Made by a program: the position numbers and the translations under genes. Source: a virus (Duplodnaviria > Caudoviricetes). From it: 56,985 nt of DNA. Below are positions 3,309 to 55,261 of the stretch, one piece after another. How positions within the stretch are numbered: position 1 is the stretch's first letter; each line of letters begins with the position of its first letter. Location: the IMG/VR virus record IMGVR_UViG_3300033153_003349, positions 1 to 56,985 of that record; one strand, written 5' to 3'. The notes under the pieces are model-generated. The model saw only the letters and a program-made list of their open reading frames with translations. It searched no databases and was not told where the DNA came from.

Positions 3309-4043
3309 TTATTTTAACTCAAGAAATTCTTTGTAGCCGTTTGCTCTTATCTTACAGGCTGGACAACTCCCGCAACCATACCCCCAATCATGTCTTTTGG
3401 TTCTATCCCCTACATAACAAGTATGAGTATCTTCTATAATATCTTGAAGATAACCTAAATCATCAGCAAGTTTAAATGTCTGTGCTTTGGATAAATACAT
3501 TAGAGGAGTTTTAATAATAAAATTTGAAGAATCAAGACCTTCTCTAATTGTATGTGTCATTGCAGACACAACATTTTTTCTACAATCAGGATAACCAGAA
3601 TAATCAGTCTCACATACTCCTGTATATACAATATCTATTCCATTCAATCTTGCTATCGTTCCTGCTATCAGATAAAAGAATAAATTCCTGCCTGGAACAA
3701 AAGATACAGGAAGATTTGGAAATATAGGGTGACTACCTTCTATGTCCGCTGAAGGTTCTGTTAATCCAGACGGCACTTGTGAAAGAAAATCGAAAGGAAC
3801 CTCAAGAATAGGTATGCTGAACTTCTGTGCCCACATATCTACCATTTCTTTTTCTACCTTATGTCTTTGTCCATAATCAACAAATATTAAAAATCTTACA
3901 ATCGTTTCTTTCATAGCTACTAACAACGTGGTAACAGAATCCTGTCCACCGCTTATTAAAACAACTGATTCTCTCATCTTATCATATTCTCCTTCTTCTG
4001 GTCTATCGTCTACAGGCCACATAAAATTATCTTCAATTCCCAT
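3309..4043 (-). CDS. queC: 7-cyano-7-deazaguanine (preQ0) synthase
   Basis: SGGQDS PP-loop, DYGQRH, FVPGRN, ETDYSGYPDCR, TPLMYLSKA, THTCY, GCGSCPACKIR. Confidence 0.96.
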   Translation of the reverse strand: MGIEDNFMWPVDDRPEEGEYDKMRESVVLISGGQDSVTTLLVAMKETIVRFLIFVDYGQRHKVEKEMVDMWAQKFSIPILEVPFDFLSQVPSGLTEPSADIEGSHPIFPNLPVSFVPGRNLFFYLIAGTIARLNGIDIVYTGVCETDYSGYPDCRKNVVSAMTHTIREGLDSSNFIIKTPLMYLSKAQTFKLADDLGYLQDIIEDTHTCYVGDRTKRHDWGYGCGSCPACKIRANGYKEFLELK

Positions 4044-9895: not shown

Positions 9896-10410
9896 TATTC
9901 ATCTCTCTTTCTGCGTGTTCTACGCTTGATTTTTTCTTTCACTCTATCATCTTTTTCTTTTTGAAGGTCATTCCTAGAGCCTAATGTTTCATCACTCTCT
10001 GGAGCAGCAAAATATTTTTGTCCGTGGAGTTTAACTAGATGGGACAAAGCATCTTTCCTTTGTTCAAAAGCCCGTAAAGCAACTTTCAACATTTCTACAC
10101 TTTCCTGTACTGTCCGTACTTCCCCCTCAGCCTCTCGATATTCTGGATGTGTTATAATGACACTCTCAATAACCTTTTCAGTTATCTTAACACCCTTGCC
10201 TATATACTCAACAGGTGTAGCTCTTACGGACAACCCCAAATCAGCCATCACTATATCTTTATTCCTTACAACGTGAGCCAATTCTATTTTTTGTCTTTCT
10301 AATTCCTCAGCATACTTTAAGAAAAGCTGAGGTTGATTAAGCCATTCAACATCAAGCATATCGGGGTCAATTTTTATTTCTTCCCGAAAATCAAACGAAT
10401 CTTTTCCCAT
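9895..10410 (-). CDS. UvsY-like recombination mediator
   Basis: IKIDPDMLDVEWLNQP, KITEKVIESVI..HPEY, AFEQRKDAL; helical, adjacent to SSB and RecA. Confidence 0.6.
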   Translation of the reverse strand: MGKDSFDFREEIKIDPDMLDVEWLNQPQLFLKYAEELERQKIELAHVVRNKDIVMADLGLSVRATPVEYIGKGVKITEKVIESVIITHPEYREAEGEVRTVQESVEMLKVALRAFEQRKDALSHLVKLHGQKYFAAPESDETLGSRNDLQKEKDDRVKEKIKRRTRRKRDE

Positions 10411-10712
10411 AAAGTTCTCCCTTTAATTTTAGGTAACAATTCAAATATATACGGCTCATCTAAACAAATAATTTGATTATCCGTTATACGTACTCTTAAA
10501 CCTTTCATTACTTTTTCTATTTCATCAATAAACTTTTGTTTCCCTTTCTGAAAAATTCCTGAATTATATATTGTCCTTATTAAAACAATACGAGTACCAT
10601 CTTCATTATAAGTCATAACTTCCATATTGCGTGCAAAAACTTCGTCAGTAATAACCTTCTGTAATAATTGATTAGTCACAATAAGCATCTTTGGTTCTTC
10701 TGGCATGGGCAC
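10374..10712 (-). CDS. Hypothetical protein (112 aa)
   Basis: AAGGAG RBS; first gene after the promoter at 10742-10770. Confidence 0.65.
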   Translation of the reverse strand: MPMPEEPKMLIVTNQLLQKVITDEVFARNMEVMTYNEDGTRIVLIRTIYNSGIFQKGKQKFIDEIEKVMKGLRVRITDNQIICLDEPYIFELLPKIKGRTLWEKIRLIFGKK

Positions 10713-10741
10713 TCCTTTATTTAATAAATTATATTTAGATA

Positions 10742-10770
10742 AATATACACTTAATTATTTTAACAAACAA
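10742..10770 (-). promoter_or_regulatory. Putative sigma70-type promoter TTGTTT-17-TATATT, flanked by TTAATAAATT(A/T) motifs (10721-10731, 10778-10788)
   Basis: Exact 17-nt spacer, intergenic, heads the recombination operon. Confidence 0.6.
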
Positions 10771-10793
10771 GCATCATTTAATAAATTTTTAAA

Positions 10794-12323
10794 TTAAAAA
10801 CTATCAGTAAAAGCCCTCCCCGCAGGTAAGAACTGAAGCACAGTCACATATTTTGTCAAGGAACTAGCCCCTTCTCTGACTAATATTACATTCCAACGCA
10901 TCACAGATTTCTCTTTTTCTTTCTCTGTTTGATTAATCCCTAACATAGCTGTCACATGACTGTACTTCCTTTTATCCTCTGAAAAATTAGACCTATCTAA
11001 TAACTGTTTATCATAACTTTCTGCATTGGTTTGTGTTCCTGCTATTACTAATGAATCCCAGTCTTGCGAGAATCGTCTAGTACCCATCCAAGAAGCATTA
11101 ATACCATCTCTCAACTGTCCTCCTGTAGGCGGTACATGGTCCATAATATCTATATAATCTATCACAATTATCTCAGGAATAAAATTTTCAGTATCTTTCC
11201 AATGCTGTAACTTCGATTCCATTTCATTAAGAGTTAAAGTCCCATTGGAATAATGTTCTACTTTGAATTTCTTTCCTCTTGTCAATTTGTTATTCCAAAA
11301 CTTCATTTTATCGTATGCTTCCATCCAACCTATCTCTGGGACATCTACATCTTCATACCAATACGTAGGTTTAAAATTTTCAAAATCTTTATTCTTTCTA
11401 CATACATCACAAGTTTGATACCCCATTTCTTTTGCTTGCTTGTACTCAAATAATGTTCCTGCATCTTCGTCATCTATTATGTCTACATCATTAATCTTAC
11501 AAGCTAACTTACAAAAATTCTGTTGGTTAGCAATACAATCTATGATAGGTTTCTTCTGTTGTCCTGTATACTGAAGGTCATAGTTTCCTCTTGTAAAATA
11601 TACACCCATACGCCTTATAAATTGTTCTCTGGTTAAATCCCCTGCCTCAAAGTAAGCTACATTATTTCCCTGCCTCCACCCTGTAAAAGCCATGTTCATC
11701 AAGTGCCAAGTCTTTCCCGATTTCTCAGCTCCCATTACTCCTACAAACCCCCCTTTAATCAAATGAGGATTAACCATTCTACCATAGGCTCCTGGGAATC
11801 TTATTAAAGGTTCTGTTACAGACTCAAAAGCTCTACGTACAGCATCAGGGTCATTAAATATATCTCTCCGTGCTTCCACTTCTTTTTGTTTATGTTTAAA
11901 TTCGTTTACTATCTTTTCACAATTCTCTTGCTTGTCATTATCTAAAGCAACTTTTAAATCATCTCTTAATTGTTCAATCTCTCGTCTATGGAAGTAATCA
12001 AACGATTCCTTAACTACATAATCCACATTTATATTATCAAATTTTTCGTATTCTTTTTCATAGCTATATAACAAATCACCGACAAGCTCTACACGGTCAT
12101 CATCTTCACCTAATTTCTTAGCCCATCTATCATAATATAAAAGAATGTCAGCTTTCGGTGCTTCTTTATATAGCTTGTAATGTTCCATGCACCAACCTAC
12201 TACTACCTTTGAAAAACTATCCTGTATAAAACTAGATTTATACCTGGGTCTAATTCTTTTTATAAAAGAAGTGTTCCTTATCATAGAAAGTGTTAATCTT
12301 CGTTCAATATACTCGTTCTGCAT
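10794..12323 (-). CDS. DnaB-like replicative helicase
   Basis: Walker A GAEKSGKT, YFEAGD, IVIDYIDIM, GTQTN, SEDKRKYSHVTAMLGINQ; near primase. Confidence 0.82.
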   Translation of the reverse strand: MQNEYIERRLTLSMIRNTSFIKRIRPRYKSSFIQDSFSKVVVGWCMEHYKLYKEAPKADILLYYDRWAKKLGEDDDRVELVGDLLYSYEKEYEKFDNINVDYVVKESFDYFHRREIEQLRDDLKVALDNDKQENCEKIVNEFKHKQKEVEARRDIFNDPDAVRRAFESVTEPLIRFPGAYGRMVNPHLIKGGFVGVMGAEKSGKTWHLMNMAFTGWRQGNNVAYFEAGDLTREQFIRRMGVYFTRGNYDLQYTGQQKKPIIDCIANQQNFCKLACKINDVDIIDDEDAGTLFEYKQAKEMGYQTCDVCRKNKDFENFKPTYWYEDVDVPEIGWMEAYDKMKFWNNKLTRGKKFKVEHYSNGTLTLNEMESKLQHWKDTENFIPEIIVIDYIDIMDHVPPTGGQLRDGINASWMGTRRFSQDWDSLVIAGTQTNAESYDKQLLDRSNFSEDKRKYSHVTAMLGINQTEKEKEKSVMRWNVILVREGASSLTKYVTVLQFLPAGRAFTDSF

Positions 12324-17593: not shown

Positions 17594-17645
17594 ATGGCCT
17601 CCTTATTTAGTTAATTGTTTTGGGTCTAGCCCTTTATCTATAACT

Positions 17646-17674
17646 AATATAACTAATAATTTATTAAAAAGCAA
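17646..17674 (-). promoter_or_regulatory. Putative sigma70-type promoter TTGCTT-17-TATATT for the DUF932/replication operon
   Basis: Exact 17-nt spacer; the motif lies in the spacer (17657-17667) and upstream (17682-17692); AAGGAGG RBS downstream. Confidence 0.65.
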
Positions 17675-17708
17675 CTATTAATTAATAAATTATAATTAAA
17701 TTTTACTC

Positions 17709-17738
17709 AAAAAGAAAGGGCATAATCACTACGCCCTT
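17709..17738 (-). terminator. Intrinsic terminator (AAGGGCGTA-gtgat-TATGCCCTT-TCTTTTT)
   Basis: 9-bp stem with one G-U pair and a U-rich tail on the minus strand. Confidence 0.65.
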
Positions 17739-17824
17739 CCTAATTTATAACCCAATCTCAATACCCGCTAAGGTACTGTAATATAAGGAATAAAGAAAAG
17801 GCATACAAGAATGATTTTTAAAGG

Positions 17825-17865
17825 AAAATAAAAAAGGGTTCAGTCGTCTAATTCTGAACCCTTTT
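17825..17865 (-). terminator. Intrinsic terminator, possibly bidirectional (AAAAGGGTTCAG / CTGAACCCTTTT)
   Basis: Perfect 12-bp inverted repeat (17832-17843 / 17854-17865) with a U-tail. Confidence 0.8.
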
Positions 17866-17932
17866 GAATCTTACATAAAATAACTCACATTATTGTGATA
17901 TTAATATACTTTTTACACTCCGTTGAAGAGAT

Positions 17933-18313
17933 TTAAAGTCCCTCCAGCGGTTTACCTTCCATGGCTATTGTGGTTTTAATTAGTATAATTTTCTTACTGT
18001 TAAAGTTGTCAGTAGGCGGGTCACTCGTACTTCTCATCACTAAGTAATGTATTGTCGCCTTGTCCTGACTCGTAGCAAACGGATAATCTTCATATTTGTC
18101 CGCTTTCGCTATGCTTTGCTCAATCGACATTACATCTAATTGAACAGCTGGACTCTGCTCCAGAACCATTTCTAAAGTTATGCTCTGTTCTTGGTCCGTG
18201 ATTACTGCACCCAATGTGGGCTCACCTCCTATCTCATTCCCTGTTCGGTAGCTTCCTGCAAAGACTACCAAAAAGGAAAATAAAATAAAGGCGAATAACA
18301 TTAATTTTTTCAT
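17933..18313 (-). CDS. Exported protein with a signal peptide (126 aa), stand-alone transcription unit
   Basis: MKKLMLFAFILFSFLVVFA; AAGGAGG RBS; own promoter and downstream terminators. Confidence 0.7.
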   Translation of the reverse strand: MKKLMLFAFILFSFLVVFAGSYRTGNEIGGEPTLGAVITDQEQSITLEMVLEQSPAVQLDVMSIEQSIAKADKYEDYPFATSQDKATIHYLVMRSTSDPPTDNFNSKKIILIKTTIAMEGKPLEGL

Positions 18314-18441: not shown

Positions 18442-18972
18442 TCAACTCCCTCTATACAAGCCTAATGCTCTGGCTACCTTCGTTTTTTCGTACTCCACTC
18501 TCCCCTTCTCCCTTACAGCCCGTTCTTTATTATACTTTGCGCCCTGGTTAGCTAGGCTGTCGGCTAACTCATTGTATCTGTTACCGCTATGTGCCTTAAC
18601 CCATTTGAACGTAACATCATGCTCCTGTGTAAGCTGATATATTTGTTTTATAAGGTCTAGGTTCTTGATACCTTTATTAATACCTACTCTCCAGTTATGT
18701 CTCTTCCATTCCCTAACCCATTTGCTCATAGAGTTTACTACATACTTACTATCAGAGACTATCGTGACCTGATACTTTTTGCCCTCATGTGAAATCGCCT
18801 GCAAAAACTTCAACACCGCTGTAAACTCCATTCTGTTATTGGTGGATGTTAAAGCTCCTCCGTATTGTATCAATTGTATAGCTCCTAATGAAACAAATCC
18901 CCAACCCCCATTCCCAGGATTAGGTACACAACTGCCATCAGTGTAAACTCTTATAGTTTTGGATTCTGCCAT
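18442..18972 (-). CDS. rnhA: Ribonuclease HI
   Basis: VYTDGSCVPNPGNGGWG, STNNRMEF, SDSKYV, KNLDL, FKWVKAHSGNRYNELADSLA. Confidence 0.95.
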   Translation of the reverse strand: MAESKTIRVYTDGSCVPNPGNGGWGFVSLGAIQLIQYGGALTSTNNRMEFTAVLKFLQAISHEGKKYQVTIVSDSKYVVNSMSKWVREWKRHNWRVGINKGIKNLDLIKQIYQLTQEHDVTFKWVKAHSGNRYNELADSLANQGAKYNKERAVREKGRVEYEKTKVARALGLYRGS

Positions 18973-19019
18973 AGACTCCTTACTCGCTTTGCTCGTTTAA
19001 TTACTTTTTTTAATTGCAT

Positions 19020-19297
19020 GAAAGATATGTGAGAAAGGTATCTTAACTCCCCCTATGATTAACATATGAAAGAGATAGATACCTGAAACAAAACTTATGA
19101 AATGACTGTTTCATTTTGGTGTAGCTATTAATATCTCGTTATGAGATACAACTTCTTCTGGTCGCTACTTTTAAATCTGACCTTGCCGTTATTGAAGAAC
19201 CCCGTTTTTACGGCATGACTCTATTGCTTATAAAACGACAGTACGTAAAATTCAGCAAATCTCTGAGCTTAGTACTGATACGGTTTGTCTCGTATCG
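19020..19297 (-). ncRNA. Candidate structured RNA/leader (or structured DNA element) upstream of rnhA
   Basis: ORF-free region tiled by consecutive stems, starting about 6 nt downstream of a TATAAT box; no known family recognised. Confidence 0.45.
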
Positions 19298-19302
19298 CAT
19301 AA

Positions 19303-19331
19303 ATTATACAAATAAAAAAGGACAAAAGCAA
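19303..19331 (-). promoter_or_regulatory. Sigma70-type promoter TTGCTT-17-TATAAT
   Basis: Perfect -10, 17-nt spacer; overlaps the late-operon terminator. Confidence 0.7.
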
Positions 19332-19353
19332 GCAAAATTTTGCCTCTGTCCTT
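19311..19353 (-). terminator. Intrinsic terminator ending the structural operon
   Basis: AAGGACAGAGG...CTTTTGTCCTT stem followed by TTTTATTT, about 30 nt after the last tail gene. Confidence 0.7.
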
Positions 19354-19385
19354 GACATATTGGGGGAGTAAGAAGTGGATTTATG

Positions 19386-20429
19386 TTACGATTCTATCTC
19401 AACTAAGACAGCAATATCATATGCAGAGATTTCATCTATACCTCCTGCATCTGAAATGAGTTCTATCTTAACACCTATTTTATTATTAGCAACAAATCCA
19501 AAAGGATTAGTTAAAGTGAATCCTCCTTTATCTACTCCTGCTCCTGAATCTAAATTAACTGTTAAGACCATAGTTTTGTCAGCCCCATTTAATAACATAG
19601 TTACTTTTAAATCACTGTTAGCAGGAGGTCCAACAGCAGAAGCACTAAATTGTACTGATACCCCAGTGACATTTCCTGCTCTAAACATTCTATACCCTAA
19701 AGTATTATCAGCCCCATCTACTGTCTGTGCTATCTCTGAGGCATCTCCTCCAGAATCAGCTGTAAGAGCAGCATTATGCCCAAAGTGTAAATGTGACCTT
19801 GCTCCTTTAGCATTTAACGTTTGGAGATTAACTATGTCCAAATCATCAGAAGGGTCTTTCACTCTTGCTCTTCCTGCACTATCCCTTTTCATTATAGCAA
19901 AGCCAGTATCAGCACTAGTAGCATTAATTACTTCAAGCCTTGTAGGATTAATCCACCCATACGTTGCTATATTATCACCAGAGATAGGAGCTTCAACATT
20001 TGCTCTCCCATTAGCATCTCTAATGAGTAATTTATTTGCTGAATTAGCAGAAGTAGCATCATCTAATTTAGTTTTATCAGATGTAGACATAAAACCAGGA
20101 TTGGTTATACTGGCTTCTCCATGAACTCCTGTTCCTACAGAACCTACGTGACCTACAGGAGCAAAAGCTGAAGGTAAATTACCTCCAACTGTTTTAGCAT
20201 CTAAATCCCATTGAGTAGATAATAATGCTTCCCACGTTCCTGGAGTAGATGTGTGTTTCTCAAACATTGCATTCCCAGCATTCCAACGTATAGTTCCTAC
20301 TGGAGGATAATTAGTATCTGTGAACAAAGTAAAATCCATTACAGCTAAAGCATCAACCCTTGCTTGGACTTCATCCCATACTGAATCATAATCTAAAACA
20401 CCGTCTGGTTTTAACCAATTATTAGCCAT
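19386..20429 (-). CDS. Tail fibre / receptor-binding-like protein (347 aa)
   Basis: Last tail gene; GFMSTSDKTKLD and repeated RDANGRA/RDSAGRA fibre motifs; beta-sandwich-like C-terminus. Confidence 0.65.
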   Translation of the reverse strand: MANNWLKPDGVLDYDSVWDEVQARVDALAVMDFTLFTDTNYPPVGTIRWNAGNAMFEKHTSTPGTWEALLSTQWDLDAKTVGGNLPSAFAPVGHVGSVGTGVHGEASITNPGFMSTSDKTKLDDATSANSANKLLIRDANGRANVEAPISGDNIATYGWINPTRLEVINATSADTGFAIMKRDSAGRARVKDPSDDLDIVNLQTLNAKGARSHLHFGHNAALTADSGGDASEIAQTVDGADNTLGYRMFRAGNVTGVSVQFSASAVGPPANSDLKVTMLLNGADKTMVLTVNLDSGAGVDKGGFTLTNPFGFVANNKIGVKIELISDAGGIDEISAYDIAVLVEIES

Positions 20430-20430
20430 A

Positions 20431-23400
20431 CTAAACTCCTTTTATAAAATAAGTAAAAGCCCCACCATCGTCTACTATCTCCCAAGTGGCTGGGGCTATA
20501 TCTAACATATGTACCATAAAGCCTGTCGGGTTTGGTATATCTTTATAATCAGCTAACATTGTCGCACCTGGATATTCAGTACCTTCAACTGTTAATGTAA
20601 TAATATCAATATCAAGAAAGTCTGCCATAGGAATCCATACACCAGCCCATACATAATCCTCATCAGTCGTTACAGTTAATGTAGTACTACCATCCACACT
20701 AGAATAAGTTTTAGCTGCTGAATGTTCATCAGTAAAGAAACGGTAATAACAAGTAAGATTGGATGGCAAGGTTCCTGTATATGGCTTATCATAGTTAGCT
20801 AAAATGTTTGCATCACTAACTCCTAATCCTGGCCATATTCTAAATTCAACAGTAATGAGGTCCATTAAGACATCAACATTAGCATTATCATCTTCCCTGT
20901 CCATCTTTTTGCCTAAGATTAAATCCCCTCCACCTCCAGGGTCACCAATAGATACATCTCCAATAATACCTCCTGGTTGTCCATTAACATAAAACAAACC
21001 ATCACCAGAACCACTGTCGGCTTTCCAAGCAATATGAACTAACTCTCCAACAGGCACTTCTTGACTTCCTTGCTCAGAAGAAAAGTTTGTTCCTCCACCA
21101 TCATTCCAATAAAATGTAGGATATAATTTTCCTCCAGAAATAATAACTCCTAAACCAAATACATAATCTTGTGCAAGAAGATACCACTTAGCACTAACAC
21201 CACCTGTTGGTATCTTTGGAATGATACCTATCCATTCAACTGTGTAATCTGTAGCATCAATAAGGTCAAAAGAAACATGAGGACCACCACTCCTGTCTGC
21301 AAAACAATTAGACGACTTAACCAATGACAAAGCACTAACAGGATTGGCAAAATCACTTTCGTCAAGTAGCTGATTCATATTATCAATATATCCTGAATCA
21401 AGTTTTTCTTGTACGAAAAGACGAGCTTTCCAATCTTGTACTTGAACAATTTGTTTGTCGTTAGCTAAATCAATAGTGAGCTTATATCGAACATATCTAA
21501 AATTTGATGTGAATATAGATTGTGTATTATCGTATGTAGTCCACACAGAATTATCAGGACTTGTTTCTATTTTTGGTGTTACTGTATATGTTCCTGTCCC
21601 AGTTATTAACATAGTATTAAATTCAAAAGATATAGTAGCTGCTTCAACAATTGCTTGATAATCTATTTGTTCCTGATAATATACTGCATCTGCTGTGACC
21701 TTAGAAGGTGTCAAGAAATGACTATATCCTGCTGTTGATTTAGCATCTGTATTAGCCCAATCGAATCCAGCAGGTTCAAATACTCCATCCCAACTTGTTT
21801 GTTCATACTGTAAACGAGACCCAAACAAAAGAATATTATCACCGTCTGCTACTGTTGTTTTCCTATACAGATTTGTCCACACTCCGACATAAGCAGAAGT
21901 TATTGTAATTCCTGTCCCACCTTTAAAGTCTGACTCATGTAAATCTAATAATTGAAAATTAGGTGGTTGATTTACTTCTACGATTACACTTTTTTCAGTT
22001 CCCTCATTACCTACTAAATCAACAGGAACAATCCAATATGTTTTTTCTCCTCCGTCTAACTCAAATATATTAGAAAATGTGGTAGAACTAAACCCTATCT
22101 CCGTGGCGGACACAAAAACATCACCACGTAATACTTTATAACCTAATGTTTCAATAGTTCCCGTACCATCCTCTGTCCATTGTAACAATACATTATTGTC
22201 AAGAACAGTAGCTTTCACTGTAAGAATCGAAGCCAGATTTATAGGAACATCTACAATAGACTCAATACCTTCTATCCCTGCATCATCTACAGCCCTAACC
22301 CACCAATATCTATCTTGAGCTTTTTCTATTCGTTTAGAGTACGCAGTAGTATTAACTGATGTCTTTAAGTTCAATGCACTAAATGTATCTGTATCGCTTG
22401 AAAAGATTTCGTAATAATTTACTTTAAAAGTGTTGTTTATAAGTGACCAAGTTAAAGTCATAGTAGCTTTATCTATTGTAGCTTTCAATCCACTTATACC
22501 AGAAAAGTTAATTTCTATCACAGTAGAAGCCATATTACTACTTTCAATATTGGAAGTATCTATAGCTTTAATCCCAAATGTATAATGTCCAGGAGGATTT
22601 AACAAACCTAAATCTGTTTCATTAGCTTTTCCTCTCCAAAGAAAATCTAAATTATCCCAACCTAAGCCAGGAGGATTCCCTGGGTCGTATGCAGGACTAA
22701 CTCTTATTTCATATTCATCTCTGTCTGCATCTAAAATATGAGTCCATCTTCCTTTAAGTTTATTGTCCTCCATAAATACAGAAAAATTCTCAACATCGCT
22801 TGGAGGATATTCTTTACCTATTACATATACAGTGGTTGCATCAGACCATGCAGAAGGTTTATTGTAAATAGATATACTTCTTACCTGGACTTCTACTCTA
22901 TCTTCAGGACTTACATCTGTTAATCTTATAAATGTATTATCAGGAGTTGTCTTAACATATTTATAGGTTAGCCCAGAAGAATATATTGATTTATATCTTA
23001 ACTCTACAGCACCGACTATAACGCCTGACCTATTTAAACTATATACTACCGTTACGCTTGCCTTGAAACTGCCGTCTATGTCTTTTATCAGAGTTGCAGA
23101 GTTACTATTAACAGCAATAAGCACAGGCACAGGAGGAACTAGGTTTGTCAAATCTAACGGACTAGTAGTTCCAGGGTCATACTCAGGTATAGGGTCAGTA
23201 TGCGAATCCAATATAGAAGGAGCTTCATCTACCAAAGTTAATGTAGCACTTAAGTTCTGATGATATTCTATTTGTGTTACTTTACAACGGACATCTACAG
23301 AACCATAGACACCAAAGATAAACAAATCACCTATATTAATTTTAGCTACATCAATAGTAGCAGTAAATTCAGTAATATTTATTCCTGGTGCTAATGTTAC

Positions 23401-25779
23401 TTCAGAGGATAACTGTTCATTCTCTTCTGTCCTTATTGTCACTCCGTATGTCTCTAATCCATCATTACCTAACTCTTCATCAGAAGTGATAGTAACTTGT
23501 CCTCCTCCTATATCATTAATAGCTTTTATTCTTCCAGGCTTCATACCTACAAGAATAGTATCATGAGAAAGAGTGACTAAATCTCCTCTGTTGCAAGTAA
23601 GGTTTTCAAAATCTAAATCTATTGTAAATACTTCAGGGCGTAAGAGCATAGAGGCTAAATGATATCTTCCTTCTCTGTAAGCCTGCTCATGTGATGTAAC
23701 TCCTTTAGTTTCAAGGTCGTTTATAATGACAGCTTTTTCTAAGCCATCTGAACCGTCTGCATTATATTCATCATTATAAGCAACAATATCATCCTCTTCC
23801 CATTTTAAAGGATTGATATATTTAACTCTTAAAGCATGAGGAACATCTCCAAAGTTTTTAACAGAACTAAAGTTGACAGAGTTTCTTTGAGTTAACATCT
23901 GTATAGGGGTTTGCCCTGCTAAATCTCTGACTATAGTAAACAAGCCCTCTACAATATTCCAACTAGCAAAACCAGTTGTAGCTACAGAGCGCATACGCTC
24001 AAACATTGTCTCCTGTTGTAACTCTACCCAGTTGTATTCTATTCCTTGCTCATCACACCATGCTCCCCAATCATATATAGCTTGTAAATCTAATCTATTA
24101 TCAGGTATAGGAAATTCATTCTGTATGCCTGTTAATACATCAAGAAATATCCATGCAGGATTAGCCGTTAACTTATAAGCGAATGTTGAAGGAGTATCTA
24201 AATATCGTAAATAACTTTTAGTGATTATATTGACATTATCTAAACTTCCTGATAATTGGTCAGTAGCCAATATCTTATAAGACATAAGTAAAACATTATC
24301 AAGAAGGAAAGGAGGATTCTGTTCAAAGGAACGTAAGAATATCCATTTAAAATCAGTATAAATTCTATACCAAGAAGGAATACTCTGTTCAGTCCAAGTA
24401 CCTATACGATAAATTAATACATCATATTGTTCTCCTGGAGTCTGAGAAGTATCTGCTATATTAAATTCTATGTGTTCTTGAAACGGGTCTTTAGTATTAT
24501 CCCAAAATGTTTTCTTGGTTACAAATTCCCAGGTTCCTTCTGAACTAACCAATGTTCCTATAGGAGCTATATACACATAAACTTCAACTCCCATGTAACT
24601 CGTTGGCCCTTCTTTCGATAATTGATTAAGCCCTGTATAGAAAGCAAACTCAACTCTTACATTAGGCACTCCGTACTGAGTAGACCTAACAGCCCATGAC
24701 TCTATAGGTACACCCGCATCTACTTGTGGCCACCATAAATCAGTAGGCACAGGGTCACCTGGGTCAAATAAAGCAACTGTTGAAAACATTGTTCTTCCAT
24801 CAAGTGTTACTGAATCTCTGTTCTCACTGTTACTTGCTGAATTACTAAACTCTTCTGAAAAGTTTTCTTGTTTGACAATATTCTTATAAAGGTCAATACT
24901 TTCCATAAATCCTATTTCTATTTCCCAGGAGTTATAAAGAGTAATAGCTGAGTTACCTATCTTTATTGTTTGGCTATCCCATTGAGAAGTAATATCAAGA
25001 ATAGTATCATCATTATATATCTTAACAACTGTAAGCACACCCTCTTCATCCGAAACCATCTTAATGGATTTTACATCTGTAGAACCACTAAGTCCCATAA
25101 TCCATTGACCGATCTCTAAAGAAGCATACCCAAGGCATAACAACCCTACAATGAATTGTCCGTAAGATTTATCTTCCATCCCCATAACCCATTTACCGTC
25201 TATAATCTCAACACTAGATAACCCAAAATCAGTATAAGACTGAGCAGCTAGGGGAGGAGCAAAGCGATATTCCCCATAAACTTTAGGAATTGGTTTGTAT
25301 GGTGTAGCTACATTTTTCTGTCCTGAAAATGTAGGTTTAGTAGATACATCATCAGTAGTAGGAATCTGAGGAGGAAACAAAACACTGACTAACATATTTC
25401 CTGCAATACCTACAACCGCAGTTATGACTCCCTGTGCAACAAGACTATTAGTCCAGAGTATTCCTGTTGCTCCTGCTAAAAAACCAGCGGTAGCTATGGC
25501 TCCTGCCAATACTACTAGCTGAGCAACCATAGACAAAACTTCTTTACCACTACCTCCATCACCCCCGCCTTCAGGAATACGATATATATTAATTAAATCA
25601 CCAGGTTTAACAGCGTAGTCCCAATCGAGAAGTTCAAAACTATTTAATGTTATCTTGTAAACATTCTGGTCAACTCCAGTTAAAAACTGACCCAGATTAG
25701 TTCCCTCAGTCAATACCGCACGAAAAACTTCAGAGGAAAATAAGTTTGGTTTTGCAATTACTTGAACATTATCCGACAT
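20431..25779 (-). CDS. Tail tip / host-specificity protein (lambda gpJ-like) with a fused gpI-like N-terminus, FN3 repeats and a C-terminal LamG-like domain
   Basis: GDLINIYRIPEGG plus hydrophobic segment, KNVATPYKPIPKVYG, TANPAWIFLDVLTG, PHALRVKYINP, RGDLVTLSHD, FN3-like W..Y repeats, YTVEW...HIAW...FYVNG. Confidence 0.85.
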   Translation of the reverse strand: MSDNVQVIAKPNLFSSEVFRAVLTEGTNLGQFLTGVDQNVYKITLNSFELLDWDYAVKPGDLINIYRIPEGGGDGGSGKEVLSMVAQLVVLAGAIATAGFLAGATGILWTNSLVAQGVITAVVGIAGNMLVSVLFPPQIPTTDDVSTKPTFSGQKNVATPYKPIPKVYGEYRFAPPLAAQSYTDFGLSSVEIIDGKWVMGMEDKSYGQFIVGLLCLGYASLEIGQWIMGLSGSTDVKSIKMVSDEEGVLTVVKIYNDDTILDITSQWDSQTIKIGNSAITLYNSWEIEIGFMESIDLYKNIVKQENFSEEFSNSASNSENRDSVTLDGRTMFSTVALFDPGDPVPTDLWWPQVDAGVPIESWAVRSTQYGVPNVRVEFAFYTGLNQLSKEGPTSYMGVEVYVYIAPIGTLVSSEGTWEFVTKKTFWDNTKDPFQEHIEFNIADTSQTPGEQYDVLIYRIGTWTEQSIPSWYRIYTDFKWIFLRSFEQNPPFLLDNVLLMSYKILATDQLSGSLDNVNIITKSYLRYLDTPSTFAYKLTANPAWIFLDVLTGIQNEFPIPDNRLDLQAIYDWGAWCDEQGIEYNWVELQQETMFERMRSVATTGFASWNIVEGLFTIVRDLAGQTPIQMLTQRNSVNFSSVKNFGDVPHALRVKYINPLKWEEDDIVAYNDEYNADGSDGLEKAVIINDLETKGVTSHEQAYREGRYHLASMLLRPEVFTIDLDFENLTCNRGDLVTLSHDTILVGMKPGRIKAINDIGGGQVTITSDEELGNDGLETYGVTIRTEENEQLSSEVTLAPGINITEFTATIDVAKINIGDLFIFGVYGSVDVRCKVTQIEYHQNLSATLTLVDEAPSILDSHTDPIPEYDPGTTSPLDLTNLVPPVPVLIAVNSNSATLIKDIDGSFKASVTVVYSLNRSGVIVGAVELRYKSIYSSGLTYKYVKTTPDNTFIRLTDVSPEDRVEVQVRSISIYNKPSAWSDATTVYVIGKEYPPSDVENFSVFMEDNKLKGRWTHILDADRDEYEIRVSPAYDPGNPPGLGWDNLDFLWRGKANETDLGLLNPPGHYTFGIKAIDTSNIESSNMASTVIEINFSGISGLKATIDKATMTLTWSLINNTFKVNYYEIFSSDTDTFSALNLKTSVNTTAYSKRIEKAQDRYWWVRAVDDAGIEGIESIVDVPINLASILTVKATVLDNNVLLQWTEDGTGTIETLGYKVLRGDVFVSATEIGFSSTTFSNIFELDGGEKTYWIVPVDLVGNEGTEKSVIVEVNQPPNFQLLDLHESDFKGGTGITITSAYVGVWTNLYRKTTVADGDNILLFGSRLQYEQTSWDGVFEPAGFDWANTDAKSTAGYSHFLTPSKVTADAVYYQEQIDYQAIVEAATISFEFNTMLITGTGTYTVTPKIETSPDNSVWTTYDNTQSIFTSNFRYVRYKLTIDLANDKQIVQVQDWKARLFVQEKLDSGYIDNMNQLLDESDFANPVSALSLVKSSNCFADRSGGPHVSFDLIDATDYTVEWIGIIPKIPTGGVSAKWYLLAQDYVFGLGVIISGGKLYPTFYWNDGGGTNFSSEQGSQEVPVGELVHIAWKADSGSGDGLFYVNGQPGGIIGDVSIGDPGGGGDLILGKKMDREDDNANVDVLMDLITVEFRIWPGLGVSDANILANYDKPYTGTLPSNLTCYYRFFTDEHSAAKTYSSVDGSTTLTVTTDEDYVWAGVWIPMADFLDIDIITLTVEGTEYPGATMLADYKDIPNPTGFMVHMLDIAPATWEIVDDGGAFTYFIKGV

Positions 25780-30331: not shown

Positions 30332-30378
30332 TCCTAATGCGAGAGCAAGACGATACTGAAAAATCTTACTCCCGCTTA

Positions 30379-30789
30379 TCAGTTTTTTGCTGTGTTCTCT
30401 TTTGCTTTCTCACCTATACCATTCAATATTGAAGCAACTTCCCAGATTTCATTAACTGCTGTTCCAGCTTTCCGTTCTAATTTTTCTTGGTCTGTATCTC
30501 TGAATAATCTAACACCTTGTTCATCAACAACACAAAGAATCATTAGACGTACTCTTGCTCCTGAGATATCACTTTTAGAATCAACTACCTTACCCTCTTC
30601 ATCTTTAATAGTTTCTGTATGGTCTAGCATATGTTGTTCAAAAGCATCTTTCTCTTTAGCTGTTAAAGTTCTGACTCTAACAGCTTTTCCTCCCCATGCC
30701 TCAACATTAACAACGTCATATTTTAAATCATCAATATTAAATATGTCGCTCTTAGACATGAATTTCTGTGGTGATTTTTCTTTAGTCAT
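30379..30789 (-). CDS. Tail assembly chaperone gpG-like
   Basis: VNVEAWGG..VRVRTLTAKEKDAFE, LCVVDEQG.RLF, ends ...AKN at the slippery site. Confidence 0.85.
   Translation of the reverse strand: MTKEKSPQKFMSKSDIFNIDDLKYDVVNVEAWGGKAVRVRTLTAKEKDAFEQHMLDHTETIKDEEGKVVDSKSDISGARVRLMILCVVDEQGVRLFRDTDQEKLERKAGTAVNEIWEVASILNGIGEKAKENTAKN
30382..30388 (-). other. Programmed -1 ribosomal frameshift site A AAA AAC
   Basis: X XXY YYZ heptamer immediately before the gpG TGA; the -1 frame runs into the gpT ORF. Confidence 0.82.
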
Positions 30790-32778: not shown

Positions 32779-33149
32779 AATACCTCAATAGACATTTGAG
32801 TTCTTTTACCACTTAACTTCTTTAAAATACCTGAAGGGTCAAGAAGGATTGCTTGCTGTCCATATTCAGTCTGTTCTAACCCTTTCCCTATCACACTATA
32901 ATACTTTTCTTTGATATCTTCTATCTGGATTTCACCTGCCCTGCGATTTTTAATAGTCGCAAAATGACAGGTTAACCAAATCCCAATTTCGGACAAGAGG
33001 CTATCACTGATTCCTATGTCGAGGAGGTACTGCTCTATGAGAGCTAAACTGGTAGCCTCAAAGTTTTTAAATTCTTTTTGGTCGATGTCTCCATCGTAAG
33101 TATCTTGTACCCTCTGAATAGGAATAGCAACAGCCATCTTGTCCTCCAT
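32775..33149 (-). CDS. Head-tail adaptor
   Basis: WLTCHFA, GLEQTEYGQQAILLDPSG; position. Confidence 0.72.
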   Translation of the reverse strand: MEDKMAVAIPIQRVQDTYDGDIDQKEFKNFEATSLALIEQYLLDIGISDSLLSEIGIWLTCHFATIKNRRAGEIQIEDIKEKYYSVIGKGLEQTEYGQQAILLDPSGILKKLSGKRTQMSIEVL

Positions 33150-33167
33150 GGAATTTGGAGATAAGGA

Positions 33168-33488
33168 TTATTTGTCCTCATCTCCAGGTTTTGTTTCATC
33201 ACCTTTTTCTTCTTCTTCAGTGATTTCTTCACCTTCGGTTTCATCTTCTTTTCCGACAAACCCTTTGGATTTAGCTGCTGCTTTGGCGGCTACTGTTTTG
33301 GCTTTCTCTTGCTCTTGCTCATACTCAAGAGGAACAACTCTTCCTTCAACTACAAGCTCAGCAACATCAGCTTTCTTGCCTACATAAAAAATTTCACCAG
33401 CTACTGCACGACCTTTTTTCCCACCAGGTGTTGTATATAAATGAACCCCAGCTTTAAGGCGATAACCATATTTTCTATCACGTGCCAT
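33168..33488 (-). CDS. Small head-associated protein with an acidic tail (106 aa)
   Basis: GAGGAG RBS; directly after the capsid gene. Confidence 0.65.
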   Translation of the reverse strand: MARDRKYGYRLKAGVHLYTTPGGKKGRAVAGEIFYVGKKADVAELVVEGRVVPLEYEQEQEKAKTVAAKAAAKSKGFVGKEDETEGEEITEEEEKGDETKPGDEDK

Positions 33489-42282: not shown

Positions 42283-42664
42283 TTTTAATTTTCCTTTCTA
42301 TCCACTTGTATATTCTGATTATAGCTTCATAAACTCTAACAAATATACTATGTTTTAGGTACCATTTAAAGGATTTAATTTCTTCTTGCCAAAATAACGA
42401 ATGAATCACATCAAATCCTATCAAGTGCATAATTAGATAATGCCATATAAAATCCCAATCATTTGTCTCGTAACCATACAAGCATAGGACACTCATACCA
42501 GCTATCCATTTAATTATCTTTGCTTGAATTCTTAAATTCTTTATCCAATCATAATCTGCTAAAGGAGCCATCATTCTTGAATATCGAGAATCATGAAAAG
42601 CTAATCCGATAATAAAAACAGCAGCTACATAATATCTATATATAATCAAGTATTCCATCAACAA
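42275..42664 (-). CDS. Membrane protein (129 aa)
   Basis: Several hydrophobic/aromatic segments; overlaps both neighbours. Confidence 0.6.
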   Translation of the reverse strand: MLMEYLIIYRYYVAAVFIIGLAFHDSRYSRMMAPLADYDWIKNLRIQAKIIKWIAGMSVLCLYGYETNDWDFIWHYLIMHLIGFDVIHSLFWQEEIKSFKWYLKHSIFVRVYEAIIRIYKWIERKIKNV

Positions 42665-45600
42665 ATCCCTTCATCTTCTATAGTAATCACTTCCGCTGTA
42701 TCTTCCACAACAATTATCTCTGGGACAAAAATCTTTACTTCCATACAAATAGAATTAAAATTTCCTAAGATAAGGAACGTTCCATTCAATGTACCTACAC
42801 CCTCCAACAATCCTGATAACTGTCCTATAGATTTAGCATCACTAGTTAGTGTTCCTGCCCCTGAAAAACTTGAAGACAAACCACCAACACCTACCAGCCC
42901 AGCAAGTAATTCTCCTGCACCAACTAAATCGGATGATAAAACCCCAACAGATTTTAAATCACCAGTAAGAGTACCCACCCCTGCTAATACAGTTGATAAA
43001 ATGCCTTCAACAGAACTATCTGATAATGTCCCAGTAAGATTACCTATCCCTTCCATAAGCACTGATAACAATCCAGTAGATTTTACATTACCAGTCAGTG
43101 TTCCCACACCTGCCATAATAACAGCTAAACCACCAGACCCATCGACAAGTATCCCAGTCAATCCTCCTACACCATCAAGACTTGATATTAATATCCCTAT
43201 ACTTTTTAAATCACCAGTAAATGTTCCTACACCATCAATAGTAATAGACAATTCACCTACACCATCTAAACTACCTGTTAACTCACCTATTCCATTTATA
43301 GTAGCTAATAATCTACCTATACCTTTCAAATCTCCTGTGTAAGTTCCAACTCCATTAGCAGTAAGAGACAATACTCCAACAGATTTAGCATCACCTGTCA
43401 GTGTTCCGATTCCTGCCATTATTGTTGATAGAGCATCTTCAGCATCATTATATAAAGTACCTGTTAAATCACCAAGACCTATTAAAGTAGATAACAATTC
43501 ACCTAATCCTTTAAGGTCTCCAGTGTAAGCTCCTACACCATCTGTACTCATAGATAATGCACCCACACTTTTAACATCACCAATCAATGCCCCTATACCA
43601 TTAGCAGTAAGAGACAATACGCCTACTGATTTAGCATCGCCAGTTAATCCTCCAATACCAGCCATTACAGTAGATAAAGCATCTATGAAAATATATTCAT
43701 AAGCACCTATATCCCAATTATCTCCCTGTGGTCTAGATACCCCATCAATATCATCATCAAATAAACCAGATAAATCTACTCCATTATTAACTGGAGGACT
43801 CTCAGCATCATTTGGTTTATGACTAGAATTTAAGTCGGGGTCAATTTCATAACCATTAGCACCTGGAGTAGGAGCATTAGCAACGTCTGCATCAAACCAA
43901 ATATTATAATCTACATTCTCAGTCCATGCACCAGTTACATTCAACATCGGAGCATCAGTTGTAGTGCATACTACTATATTATTCTTAAAATTAAGAGTGC
44001 ATCCAGACAAACTTGTATCAAATACCGTTACGTTGCCTTGTATCTGACTACCCGCAAGAATTGTATTATTATAAATATTTATAGTTGTATTTGCCTGACA
44101 AGTTTTAAATTTGATTAATGCTTTAACATAATCGTGACCATTAATTACATTATTATATACACTCCAAGTTCCAGACGCATCTTCTAAAAATACGCCTTGT
44201 GAATCAACTGGGTCGGTATTATCTAAATCAAAATAATTATATCTTATAATGCCATTACCACCAGCAGTTCCTTGATTTCTTTGAAAAGCATCGTTATGAC
44301 CAGAACCACTATTTAATATTCTAATGGTGGAATACTCTAAGATAATATTAGTATTCGCCTGAACTTGCATACCATCAGTTTGATTACTACTATTGGTAAC
44401 TGTTGTAAAATCGTAATATCTGATTGTGATATTGGTATTATCAAATATTCTCATTCCAATAGTCTCAGAGTCGTGGTATTTGATATGGTCAATAGTTACA
44501 TTGTCGGTATGTTCACATCGTACTGCATAGGTGGTAGGGTCTGTAACAGTCATACGAGACACTGTGACATAATCTGGTCCGGGATCAAGATCAATACCAT
44601 AATCCCTTGTACCTTCACCATCAATGATCACTTCTCCATCGTGGTCTTGGTCTATTCCTTTTTTAATTGTAATTAGGTTCCCTGCTGTACCACTGGCTGT
44701 TGGGGTCAGAGTTTCTAAGTAAGTTTTTGAAGTACTACCTCCTGAAATATAGACTGTATCGGCAGGAGATACAGAACCCCAATTTATATCAGCGAAAGAT
44801 TCCCATGCGTTAATCCATGAGGTTCCAGCGTTTGTTCCTGTTGCACCATTATCTACATACCAATTTGTTCCTGCGCTTTCAAAAACACCAGTTAAAGAAC
44901 CAACACCATCAGTAAGTAAAGACAACACACCAACAGATTTAGCATCACCAGTTAATGAACCAATCCCAGCCATAGTAGTTGATAAGTTTCCTGCTACTCC
45001 TGTTCCTAAAGTTCCTGATAATCCCCCTGTTCCTGCCATTGTAGTTGATAATATGCCTACGGATTTAGCATCACCAGTTAAGGAACCAACCCCTGCCATA
45101 GTTGTAGAGAGAGCATCATCACCACCTAAATCCTCAATAGAACCAAAAGTAATAAACCCAGCCGTATTAAAAAAGTTGTCGTGGTTTGCAGAAACCCAAT
45201 CCGCATTTCTATCTATACTATGAATTCTAAATTCAGCAATTTCTATATCGGAACAATTACTGGAACTGCTTTGTCCTGTGGCTAAATACCATACATCATT
45301 TGATATACTATTAGCATCTGTGTTTGTGCCGTCTGCAACACCATCCATATAATATTTTAATTCGTCTGTTCCAGTACCTTCTCTAACAGCAACCGCATGA
45401 TGATAATTTATTGAATCAGGCCAGAGAGAATCTGCTGGTCTATCATCACCACTATATACACCCCAATAAGTATTAGCATCATCTAACTTGAGGTTAAAAC
45501 TTGGTGAGTATTGTCCATTCCCAAAAATACCTTCCCAAGTATTACCATTATCAGATATACGTTTTACCAATGCTTCAAAAGTATAATTTCCCGTTCCAAT

Positions 45601-47370: not shown

Positions 47371-47374
47371 TTAT

Positions 47375-47858
47375 TTATCCACCCATTTGCATAATAATAT
47401 CTGATGTCTCATCCAACTGTCTTGTGGTAAGAACCTTCGTGGTAGGATTTTGCTCAAATGTAAAACCCACAATGACATCTTTCCCTGTATCTGGTTCATT
47501 AGGAATATAAGTTCTTACAACCCCAGACAGTGTTTTATAATCAGCAGCTACAATGGAAAACCCCTGATTCGGGAACATAGAAATTAATTCTTCCCTAACT
47601 TCAGTTAAAAAGATATTCTGGTCTGTCTTTAATGTTGAAACAGGGATATTATCTTTATAAAATGATTCTTCTGTTCCCGTAGGGTCAGTGACATAGAAAT
47701 ATACATTCCTATGAACAGCCGTATCATTCGCTACATCCAAGATATTCTGAGCATACACCTCAGTACCATTAGGAAGTGGAGATTGATCCATAGCAACAGG
47801 TGGACCTACTAAACTATGGTTTGCTTGCTAAATCCACAAGCAGTTCTGATTTAGTCAT
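47375..47858 (-). pseudogene. Hypothetical virion-region gene apparently interrupted by a +1 frameshift near codon 14 (in-frame remainder 47375-47791)
   Basis: The ATG at 47858 has a GGAGG RBS and reads MTKSELLVDLASKP*; the +1 frame continues HSLVGPPVAMDQSP... The annotated ATG at 47791 has no good RBS. Confidence 0.5.
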
Positions 47859-47861
47859 TTT

Positions 47862-48323
47862 TTAATCCTCCGTAAATACACAAGCATCAGCAGCAAATGT
47901 AGGAGTGACCCCACTACCAACTACAAGGTCAGGACAAGTCCCAGAATAAAATATCTTTCCTGCCCCAGACAAGAGATACCCTGCTGATATATGGGTAATA
48001 GTGGCTCCTGTTCCTCCTGTACCTAATGGGAACGCTAAAGATGCTGTATTTTTGCCAGTAGCAGGTGAAACGCCAGAACTAATAGTCCATTTTGTATCAT
48101 CCCTTACAACTGCTAAACGAGTATAACCAACATACTCTCCAGTGGTTACTTCATTTGTTTCCTGGTCTCCTGCCTCTCCAGGGTCAGATGTATGTAACGC
48201 TATGAAAATATCCCCATCTACTGTACTACCAACCAAACCAGTAGCATCACCAATTAACGGAAGAGGAATGTTGTTAAGAATTAAATCCAACATCTGTTCT
48301 TGAAAAACTCTACCTTTTGACAT
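47862..48323 (-). CDS. Small beta-rich virion/fibre subunit (153 aa)
   Basis: IFIALHTSDPGEAG.Q..NEV...Y.R..V, N...LAFP..TG, ITH, V.SGVTPTF.A; a motif set common in phage fibre-associated proteins. Confidence 0.7.
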   Translation of the reverse strand: MSKGRVFQEQMLDLILNNIPLPLIGDATGLVGSTVDGDIFIALHTSDPGEAGDQETNEVTTGEYVGYTRLAVVRDDTKWTISSGVSPATGKNTASLAFPLGTGGTGATITHISAGYLLSGAGKIFYSGTCPDLVVGSGVTPTFAADACVFTED

Positions 48324-48335
48324 TTTATATCTCCT

Positions 48336-48608
48336 TTATGAAATTAAATAATCTATTAATAGTTTAACTAACACACCAGCACCAGTACCGAAAGCAACAG
48401 GGAGTAAATCAAGTCCTGCCTGCTTAAACGTCTGTCCTGTTTTCTTTTTATTCATGAGCTGGTAAAATTTGTACATTACACCAAGCCCGAAAGCACCAAC
48501 CGCAGAATTATACATGGGTGCGCCAAGAAAATTAGCTACTACGACAATTAATAAAGCCACGATAAAATGATAAACTATAACCCTTTGTTCTTTTAAAAAT
48601 TCTAACAT
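48336..48608 (-). CDS. Small membrane protein (about 3 TM)
   Basis: Hydrophobic segments; GAAGGG RBS. Confidence 0.62.
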   Translation of the reverse strand: MLEFLKEQRVIVYHFIVALLIVVVANFLGAPMYNSAVGAFGLGVMYKFYQLMNKKKTGQTFKQAGLDLLPVAFGTGAGVLVKLLIDYLIS

Positions 48609-48623
48609 TTTAAACCCCTTCTT

Positions 48624-48956
48624 TTAAAGTATAAAAAATATTCCAATTAACATTCCAATACCTATCCCTATAAATCCTAAAAACATATCCCACTTATCAA
48701 ATTTACCTTCAGAAGTAAAGAACGCTGACGGAAACCATCCCCAATCCTTAATCCTTTCTGTATCGGAATAAAGCACTTTGTACCTGTCCCATATTTCATA
48801 AAGAAAAGGAGACATCACAACTATAGCAAGTAAAATAACAAGTGCAATTTTTGGGTAAAACGTAACCCAAAACCAAAGCAGGATCATTACTAGTGGTCCC
48901 AATAAATGAACATAAGCTGACTTGTTCGGAAAAATCTTTTTCCATAATTCTTTCAT
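48624..48956 (-). CDS. Small membrane protein (about 3 TM)
   Basis: Hydrophobic segments; AGGAG RBS. Confidence 0.62.
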   Translation of the reverse strand: MKELWKKIFPNKSAYVHLLGPLVMILLWFWVTFYPKIALVILLAIVVMSPFLYEIWDRYKVLYSDTERIKDWGWFPSAFFTSEGKFDKWDMFLGFIGIGIGMLIGIFFIL

Positions 48957-48977
48957 TTTAACTCTCCTTAGTTAGTA

Positions 48978-51761: not shown

Positions 51762-51764
51762 GAT

Positions 51765-52430: not shown

Positions 52431-52432
52431 AA

Positions 52433-52714
52433 TTAACTCCCACGTATATTTCTATATTTTATTAATATTGACACACCAGGAATCTTTTCTTCTACTTCAA
52501 CTCCTAGTTTTGTTTTTATAGTTTGTATCAAATCATTTATACAATTAATTTCCATACTACCATAATTTGCTATCTCTATTGCTAATTCTGGTTGAAAAAC
52601 TGTAGTACATATAAATCCTTTCTTAATCAGCTCTACTATTAAAGCACCCCAAGAATCACCCCAAGAGTTCCCCCAAGAATTTCCCCATGCGCTACCCATT
52701 ATGCAGGATTCCAA
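52433..52714 (-). CDS. Small protein with SWG repeats (probable start MGSAWG at 52699)
   Basis: AWGNSWGNSWGDSWG; the TAATG overlap with the upstream stop supports the second Met. Confidence 0.6.
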   Translation of the reverse strand: MESCIMGSAWGNSWGNSWGDSWGALIVELIKKGFICTTVFQPELAIEIANYGSMEINCINDLIQTIKTKLGVEVEEKIPGVSILIKYRNIRGS

Positions 52715-53648: not shown

Positions 53649-53666
53649 TATATATCCTTTCCTTGA

Positions 53667-55244: not shown

Positions 55245-55261
55245 TTTCTATCTCCTTAATA

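Follow-up and report, generated by a model that had tools for sequence, protein, structure and literature searches.

In phage T7 the region between gene 1 and gene 1.1 holds the promoters phi1.1A and phi1.1B, the RNase III site R1.1 and the primary origin. This is one of several described arrangements with which an untranslated stretch of phage DNA, the gap at positions 18973-19385 in front of an RNase HI gene, is compared here. The window analysed is the whole linear IMG/VR virus record IMGVR_UViG_3300033153_003349 (56,985 nucleotides (nt), estimated 78% complete), and the gap is read on its minus strand. A preliminary description had presented the locus as a densely base-paired element transcribed from a consensus promoter, and had considered an RNA-primed origin or an undescribed regulatory RNA. 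With a probability of about 0.55, the gap is a terminator, a promoter and a cis-acting structured 5' untranslated region placed at the joint between the late and the replication genes, and it can be regarded as a fairly ordinary module boundary.

In ColE1 RNA II, a G-rich preprimer segment forms a persistent hybrid with the C-rich template downstream, near the origin. The 5' stem-loop stabilisers and structured leaders comprise the ompA 5' hairpin, the rncO leader of rnc and the lambda N leader. The 5'-terminal position is the classic place of a stabilising hairpin (ompA type), and rncO is cut by the very enzyme whose gene it precedes. In HK022, the put RNAs are described as pairs of stem-loops about 70 nt in length, found shortly after PL or some 270 nt beyond the PR start site (PMC9378689). 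Stem-loops and a short GC-rich tract characterise the conAn2 regions, which are presented as intergenic, 260-600 bp long and poorly conserved, in an account which names only a few RNA-only antiterminators (put, EAR, conAn2; PMC8191782). T7 origins are each reported to require a promoter, and in the same study replication of a T7-ori plasmid needed RNase HI to be inactivated (PMC8373140).

The locus resembles the T7 gene 1/gene 1.1 region as an intergenic joint from which a promoter would launch a folded leader into the next gene block, near replication functions. It differs from it in that the promoter looks sigma-70-like and no gene for a phage RNA polymerase could be recognised in the window, that no AT-rich segment follows the promoter and that no similarity to 50,697 phage records was found. 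With ColE1 it shares the plan of a non-coding RNA, a few hundred nt long, folded and holding a G tract, which is made from a promoter, and an involvement of RNase HI; however, the leader here is not G-rich, the C tract lies upstream of the promoter and its complementarity is at chance level, there is no RNA I-like or other Rfam match, and the transcript enters a translated gene with a strong ribosome-binding site. The likeness to put and conAn2 consists of a promoter-proximal stem-loop RNA, a long one-directional gene array, internal terminators and comparable sizes, but the 5' stem-loops here have no statistical support, there is no ConAn1-like partner, later units have motifs of their own, and antitermination by this leader is hypothetical. 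Like the ompA, rncO and lambda N cases, the locus places a long folded leader between a terminator and promoter and the gene; the leader opens with a hairpin at its 5' terminus, and a long bulged one (H6 below) precedes the ribosome-binding site. T7 R1.1, the lambda N leader and rncO are the comparators for H6 as an RNase III or protein-binding site. Nevertheless, no Rfam match to rncO or another leader was found, and H6 does not cover the ribosome-binding site. Self-regulation in the style of rncO is not expected here because RNase HI does not cut double-stranded RNA.

Terminator and promoter motif in front of RNase H

The upstream end of the gap holds three features:

19353-19318, minus strand: intrinsic terminator stem-loop of 14 pairs (5 G-C) with an 8-nt loop, followed by a T-run at 19317-19308
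19331-19326, minus strand: -35-like hexamer TTGCTT (3/6 matches to TTGACA) with a 17-nt spacer to the -10, lying in the terminator's 3' arm
19308-19303, minus strand: -10 hexamer TATAAT (6/6), opening the shared 10-mer TATAATTTAT (19308-19299)

The stem-loop at 19353-19318 begins 33 nt past the TAA of the tail-fibre-like gene and has the tail TTTTATTTGT; a stem with G and C, a U-run, the transcribed strand and a place past a stop codon, as in intrinsic terminators, are all found here. It folds with -19.1 kcal/mol (z -4.71), ranks 1 of 5694 among the GC-corrected 51-nt folds of the minus strand and is the strongest intrinsic terminator in the window. Its T-run abuts TATAAT. The preliminary description had missed this terminator; the sequence TTGCTT-17-TATAAT, which it had reported as a promoter, is indeed present at 19331-19303. 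The -10 is perfect, but the term consensus does not suit the -35. Because the latter matches TTGACA at only 3/6 positions, a scan with the sigma-70 consensus, which may not be that of the host, did not list the site. The pattern TTGnnn-N16-18-TATAAT nevertheless has only three copies per strand in 56,985 nt, one of them here. Sigma-70-type promoters have -35 and -10 hexamers 16-18 nt apart and start their transcripts 6-8 nt past the -10, and from the position of the hexamers here a transcription start near 19296/19295 is predicted.

Promoter activity is made more credible by a family of motifs, found when all 14 gaps of the window were compared. The 10-mer TATAATTTAT occurs five times, always on the minus strand, against 1.00 copy expected (0/100 shuffles reach five), and four of the five copies lie in intergenic gaps of the replication module. 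Exact copies of the 13-mer TATAATTTATTAA number three, against 0.00 expected in 100 shuffles, and each of them lies in a gap and on the minus strand; at the 19308 site its final three nt are GCG, not TAA. The other copies in gaps are the following:

3292-3280, minus strand: exact TATAATTTATTAA, 26 nt upstream of the clamp-loader gene
10733-10721, minus strand: exact TATAATTTATTAA, 8 nt upstream of the GTG of the open reading frame (ORF) 10374-10712
17694-17682, minus strand: exact TATAATTTATTAA, 88 nt upstream of the DUF932 gene and preceded by two terminators
18393-18381, minus strand: AATAATTTATTAA, with one mismatch, 67 nt upstream of an ORF of 126 amino acids (aa) at 17933-18313

These copies are all within the replication module and upstream of genes (8, 26, 67 and 88 nt to the start codon), and no -35 common to the motif copies was found. 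At 19308-19299 the same extended -10 word is present, on the coding strand, in an intergenic gap and upstream of a gene, which supports a place for this site in a phage-specific, early or middle promoter-like set, the family TATAATTTAT(TAA). Because the -10 word recurs before other genes of the replication module, promoter function is better supported than by the hexamers alone, and a promoter reading into RNase H is plausible.

Folding of the leader

Between the predicted start near 19296 and the ATG of RNase H there are about 324 nt of untranslated leader, several times more than the 8-88 nt found at the other motif copies. No terminator-like sites were found inside it. Small protein genes were dropped as candidates for the gap, in which ORFs reach 46 aa at most and none has a ribosome-binding site. 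The hairpins and the ribosome-binding site of the leader are listed below with their pair probabilities.

19277-19296, minus strand: H1, GATACG/CGTATC, 6 bp closing an 8-nt loop, placed where the transcript is predicted to begin (0.98; in the minimum free energy (MFE) fold)
19239-19277, minus strand: H2, CAGTAC/GTACTG enclosing TCAG/CTGA, abutting H1 (0.43-0.52)
19184-19215, minus strand: H3, TGCCGT/ACGGCA (0.81; z of the piece -1.33)
19121-19168, minus strand: H4, outer GTAGC/GCTAC (0.32) and inner 7-bp GUAUCUC/GAGAUAU at 19149-19131 (0.99)
19084-19036, minus strand: H6, AGGTATCT/AGATACCT, bulged, 19 pairs (8+7+4), ending 63 nt before the RNase H start codon
18976-18981, minus strand: Shine-Dalgarno sequence AAGGAG, 3 nt before the RNase H ATG (18972)

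All stems of the preliminary description were found where it had placed them, and they are of very unequal quality. H6 and the inner stem of H4 stand out. H6 has a pair probability of 0.91 and folds with -19.4 kcal/mol (z -4.04). At W=61 it is one of the 8 best distinct loci, and at W=76 it takes rank 96 of 5691. Its 3' arm holds a Shine-Dalgarno-like GGGGGAG, which pairs with CUCUUUC through, among others, three G-U pairs; the ribosome-binding site of RNase H is left uncovered. On the plus strand H6 folds with -13.9 kcal/mol (z -3.49), and the gain of 5.5 kcal/mol which the G-U pairs bring on the transcribed strand is the only strand-specific signal. The piece with H4 has z -3.93 yet ranks only 483 of 5693 genome windows. 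H1 and H2 together (58 nt) give z -1.19, with 28/200 shuffles as good, and H2 is seen in the local fold and absent from the global MFE fold. H5 (ATGAAA/TTTCAT) has a pair probability of 0.02, and a stem AAGATA/TATCTT, supposed earlier to compete with H6, dropped out with a probability of 0.00.

As a whole, the transcribed strand of the leader (18973-19300) folds with -71.6 kcal/mol (z -2.55) and better than any of 100 shuffles. The opposite strand gives z -1.27, and the leader as single-stranded DNA z -1.16 and -1.73. The most unusual property is the number of inverted repeats, counted as distinct perfect stems of at least 6 nt with loops of 3-40 nt. The leader has 14 of them against 2.92 +/- 1.63 in 500 shuffles, none of which reaches 14. 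Among 567 genome windows (3.06 +/- 1.90) only the overlapping one at 19001 reaches this number, and the best windows unrelated to the leader hold 9. Direct repeats are not enriched (5 vs 4.38), and repeated operators were rejected on this ground. The stems differ in sequence and spacing; therefore folding of the strand fits better than repeated protein-binding sites.

A number of observations speak against the reading of the gap as terminator, promoter and functional structured leader. Random 328-nt windows of the same strand (24) have a mean z of -0.37 with a standard deviation of 1.27, and one of the 24 equals or passes -2.55. The GC-corrected MFE of the leader ranks 220 of 567 genome windows, its local folding (pair span up to 50 nt) ranks 38 of 378, and its mean paired probability is 0.50, with 233 of 378 windows at least as paired. 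The excess of inverted repeats is suggestive rather than decisive, because the statistic was picked after the stems of the preliminary description had been listed and because several stems share arms. As to the promoter, the -35 is weak (3/6) and the promoter rules of the host may differ, one copy of the 10-mer TATAATTTAT sits within a coding region (12585-12576), and the shared motif could be the binding site of a regulator instead. No stem has support from conservation or covariation, since no homologue was found in the searches described below. A search of sequencing runs gave no RNA run covering the stretch; one DNA run (share 0.06) yielded a 194-nt contig over 18006-18199 and a poor 38-nt piece, with nothing over the gap, which says nothing on expression or habitat. 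It follows from the two kinds of measure that the expression "densely base-paired" holds for the count of perfect inverted repeats, which is exceptional, but not for energy: by energy the leader is modest or ordinary, by inverted-repeat count it is the extreme of the window.

Homologues were sought widely. The gap had no blastn match in 50,697 phage records, and against 155 fetched loci its best match was 23 nt long (E 0.018). RNase H had four loci in viral contigs (32-41% identity), none a close relative, 80 kept loci in metagenome contigs (best 47%) and 67 in GTDB genome contigs (best 46%). In viral contigs the tail-fibre-like gene and DUF932 had no match and the large terminase reached 44% at best; tblastn against phages gave at best 38.6% (DUF932) and 41.9% (terminase). 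A covariance-model search of the whole window with Rfam 15 gave no match at the gathering score, and a permissive search of 18800-19500 gave five sub-threshold matches of 16-17 bits, against gathering scores of 45-100 (best E 1.2). No tRNA or tmRNA was found. A riboswitch or other known leader was rejected for lack of an Rfam match, and the hairpin-rich transcript stays, as first described, unassigned to a known RNA family.

Proposed roles of the leader

It had been suggested that the locus could be an RNA-primed origin paired with its own RNase H. A transcription-activated or R-loop origin of the T7, T4 or ColE1 kind, with RNase HI processing the transcript, is highly improbable. The promoter heads the replication module and adjoins the RNase H gene, but in the T7-ori plasmid study the inactivation of RNase HI was needed for replication (PMC8373140), so that the enzyme would remove such R-loops and not help; the adjacency is therefore no argument for priming. 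Nor is it a habit of RNase H genes to carry such an element. Of 151 further RNase H loci, 136 could be compared, as they had an ORF on the upstream side and no less than 450 nt of sequence there. The ORF-free distance before RNase H in these has a median of 61 nt and reaches 300 nt or more in only one, which was rejected as a comparable locus (a high-GC contig in which a 251-aa antisense ORF overlaps the stretch). A promoter, said in PMC8373140 to be needed by every T7 origin, is predicted here too, but the AT-rich unwinding region which stands beside the promoter in T7- or T4-type origins is not found. There is no AT-rich block in the gap, whose lowest 100-nt GC is 0.29; the leader has a GC of 0.352 against 0.362 for the genome, and the AT-richest spots of the window are elsewhere in the replication module, at 10711-10810 (0.14) and 17611-17710 (0.17), both with the promoter word. 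The transcript holds one G5 run, but there are 30 on the strand, and with a GC skew of +0.07 against a strand mean of +0.227 the leader is less G-skewed than its surroundings. Complementarity of its G tract GGGGGAGT to the C tract ACTCCCCC, to which the preliminary description had drawn attention, is at chance level (at least 8 nt in 112/1000 shuffles), and ACTCCCCC is absent from the leader transcript because it lies upstream of the promoter. Neither a G-rich preprimer segment hybridising to a downstream C-rich template nor similarity to the RNA I/RNA II family was found. The inverted repeats are dense, but as single-stranded DNA the leader folds no better than shuffles, and there are no iterons: direct repeats number 5 vs 4.38, and the GATAC/AGATAC words were rejected as such, AGATAC being over-represented genome-wide and the stems differing in sequence and spacing. 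Cumulative GC skew, proposed as a check on the origin position, shows no inflection and says little about an origin, because all genes are on one strand.

A spacer without function is unlikely, although the terminator and the promoter could be real while the approximately 280 nt of stems were left by a decayed lost gene or by a palindrome-rich insert. Ordinary energy ranks (220/567; 38/378), a random window in 24 with the same z, three of the six proposed stems with low probability or non-significant z, a GC equal to the genome average and the short distance (8-88 nt) from each of the other four motif copies to its gene are what would be expected of a spacer. However, perfect inverted repeats reach here the highest density of 567 windows, without an excess of direct repeats, H6 is strand-specific and few local folds of the strand are stronger, and 280 nt without a use would be out of keeping with a phage that has only 2374 non-coding nt in 56,985. 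Very unlikely, too, is a new family of specific regulatory RNA acting in cis, of which a processive antiterminator like HK022 put or pLS20 conAn2 would be an example. In the antiterminator version, polymerase from this promoter would read through two strong terminators 1.4-1.6 kb downstream. Two intrinsic terminators do follow in the gap 17594-17932, but read-through is not obviously needed because later gaps each carry their own motif copy. H1 and H2, as two abutting stem-loops of 58 nt at the predicted 5' end, are similar to put in layout, yet their fold is not better than shuffles (z -1.19, 28/200) and the probability of H2 is about 0.5. The gap of 413 nt with stems and a G5 tract is comparable to the conAn2 regions (260-600 bp), but the gene in front is tail-fibre-like and not ConAn1-like. 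The likeness to put and conAn2 is one of described layout and size. It is also quite unlikely that the 324-nt leader is a new cis-acting phage RNA, either a processive antiterminator or a processing platform which times the replication module, with hairpin density as its signature.

Under the preferred reading of terminator, promoter and structured leader, the very strong terminator at 19353-19318 would end the tail-gene transcript, and the -10 of the TATAATTTAT(TAA) family, abutting its T-run, would restart transcription near 19296 into the replication module, of which the same motif may head at least four other transcription units. The leader of about 324 nt, made up of the 5'-terminal H1 and a chain of short hairpins, in which only the bulged H6 about 60 nt before the start codon is thermodynamically outstanding, would act in cis on its own mRNA. 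H1 may protect the 5' end of the mRNA from decay. H6, which appears to have the dimensions of an RNase III or protein-binding site, could be where the mRNA is processed or bound by a protein, and could in this way set the level or the timing of the first replication-module genes. The terminator, the motif family, the stems with their statistics and the gene context are observed, while promoter activity, the start site and any function of the leader are inferred.

The second-largest gap, 17594-17932 (339 nt), folds better than the RNase H gap (z -4.21, GC-corrected residual -25). It has two intrinsic terminators, at about 17870-17830 and 17741-17713, after which comes a near-palindromic stretch of 17% GC in which both strands carry the promoter word. 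Should the module possess an AT-rich origin or unwinding element, 17594-17932 or 10711-10810 is the better candidate.

Gene context and meaning for the phage

The ORFs of at least 90 aa which tile the window are all on the minus strand, and the gap of 413 nt is, as the preliminary description had held, the largest ORF-free one in it. The gene content on both sides also bears out its place at the late/early boundary, because the structural block lies upstream and RNase HI with the replication genes downstream; the gap is the joint between the structural (late) and the replication/recombination genes. The neighbouring genes are as follows:

20431-25779, minus strand: Phage-tail_3, upstream neighbour of the tail-fibre-like ORF
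19386-20429, minus strand: tail-fibre-like ORF, 347 aa, last gene of the structural module, with weak PHROG matches only; stop TAA at 19388-19386
18442-18972, minus strand: RNase HI, 176 aa, first gene of the replication/recombination module (PF00075, E 3.6e-40; phrog_531, E 1.3e-50)

The upstream block is of the siphovirus type and includes endolysin, large terminase (found by tblastn), portal, head morphogenesis, capsid and tape measure genes and a 1782-aa tail protein. After RNase HI, the downstream module continues with DUF932, an SNF2 helicase, primase, a helix-turn-helix regulator, a DnaB-like helicase, a UvsX-like recombinase, RusA, SbcCD, QueC, a clamp loader, QueD and QueE.

Several other features of the window were recorded. 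The QueE-, QueD- and QueC-like genes (771-1499, 1816-2349 and 3309-4043) lie amid the replication genes and suggest synthesis of a 7-deazaguanine precursor by the phage, perhaps for modifying DNA. Copies of the hexamer AGATAC number 68 in the window, where shuffles predict 34. Among the 76-nt local folds of the strand, the strongest (-33.5 kcal/mol, z -5.15) is at 18215-18300, minus strand, within the 5' coding part of the 126-aa ORF 17933-18313, the N-terminus of which resembles a signal peptide. The ORF 33168-33488, in the head-gene block and just downstream of the capsid gene, has its stop codon spanned by an 11-pair hairpin (33141-33191, minus strand); of the 328-nt windows of the strand, the one at 32901 is the most stable (-110.8 kcal/mol). 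In the region 30339-30388, minus strand, a zero-frame slippery heptamer A_AAA_AAC (30388-30382) stands directly before the UGA of a 136-aa ORF (30379-30789). A 13-pair hairpin (-21.5 kcal/mol, z -3.14) follows 6 nt further on, and the -1 frame from 30388 is open through a 99-aa ORF to 30032, just upstream of the tape-measure gene. The arrangement looks like the classic G/GT frameshift of tail-assembly chaperones. The region 42658-56851, upstream of the lysis and packaging genes, is a functionally dark block, in which a PHROG match at E <= 1e-5 is absent for six of the nine scanned proteins (1570, 927, 529, 525, 221 and 164 aa).

An R-loop origin would have been the striking outcome and is unsupported. 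A new RNA-only, cis-acting antiterminator leader would be of real interest, and nothing here shows one. If the gap is a terminator, a promoter and a structured leader, it means ordinary phage wiring, in which the late transcript is stopped and transcription is then restarted into the replication genes. The leader is notwithstanding this the most inverted-repeat-dense stretch of the phage genome, and in an orphan phage that is otherwise unannotatable the promoter word TATAATTTATTAA, as defined here, marks out the transcription units.

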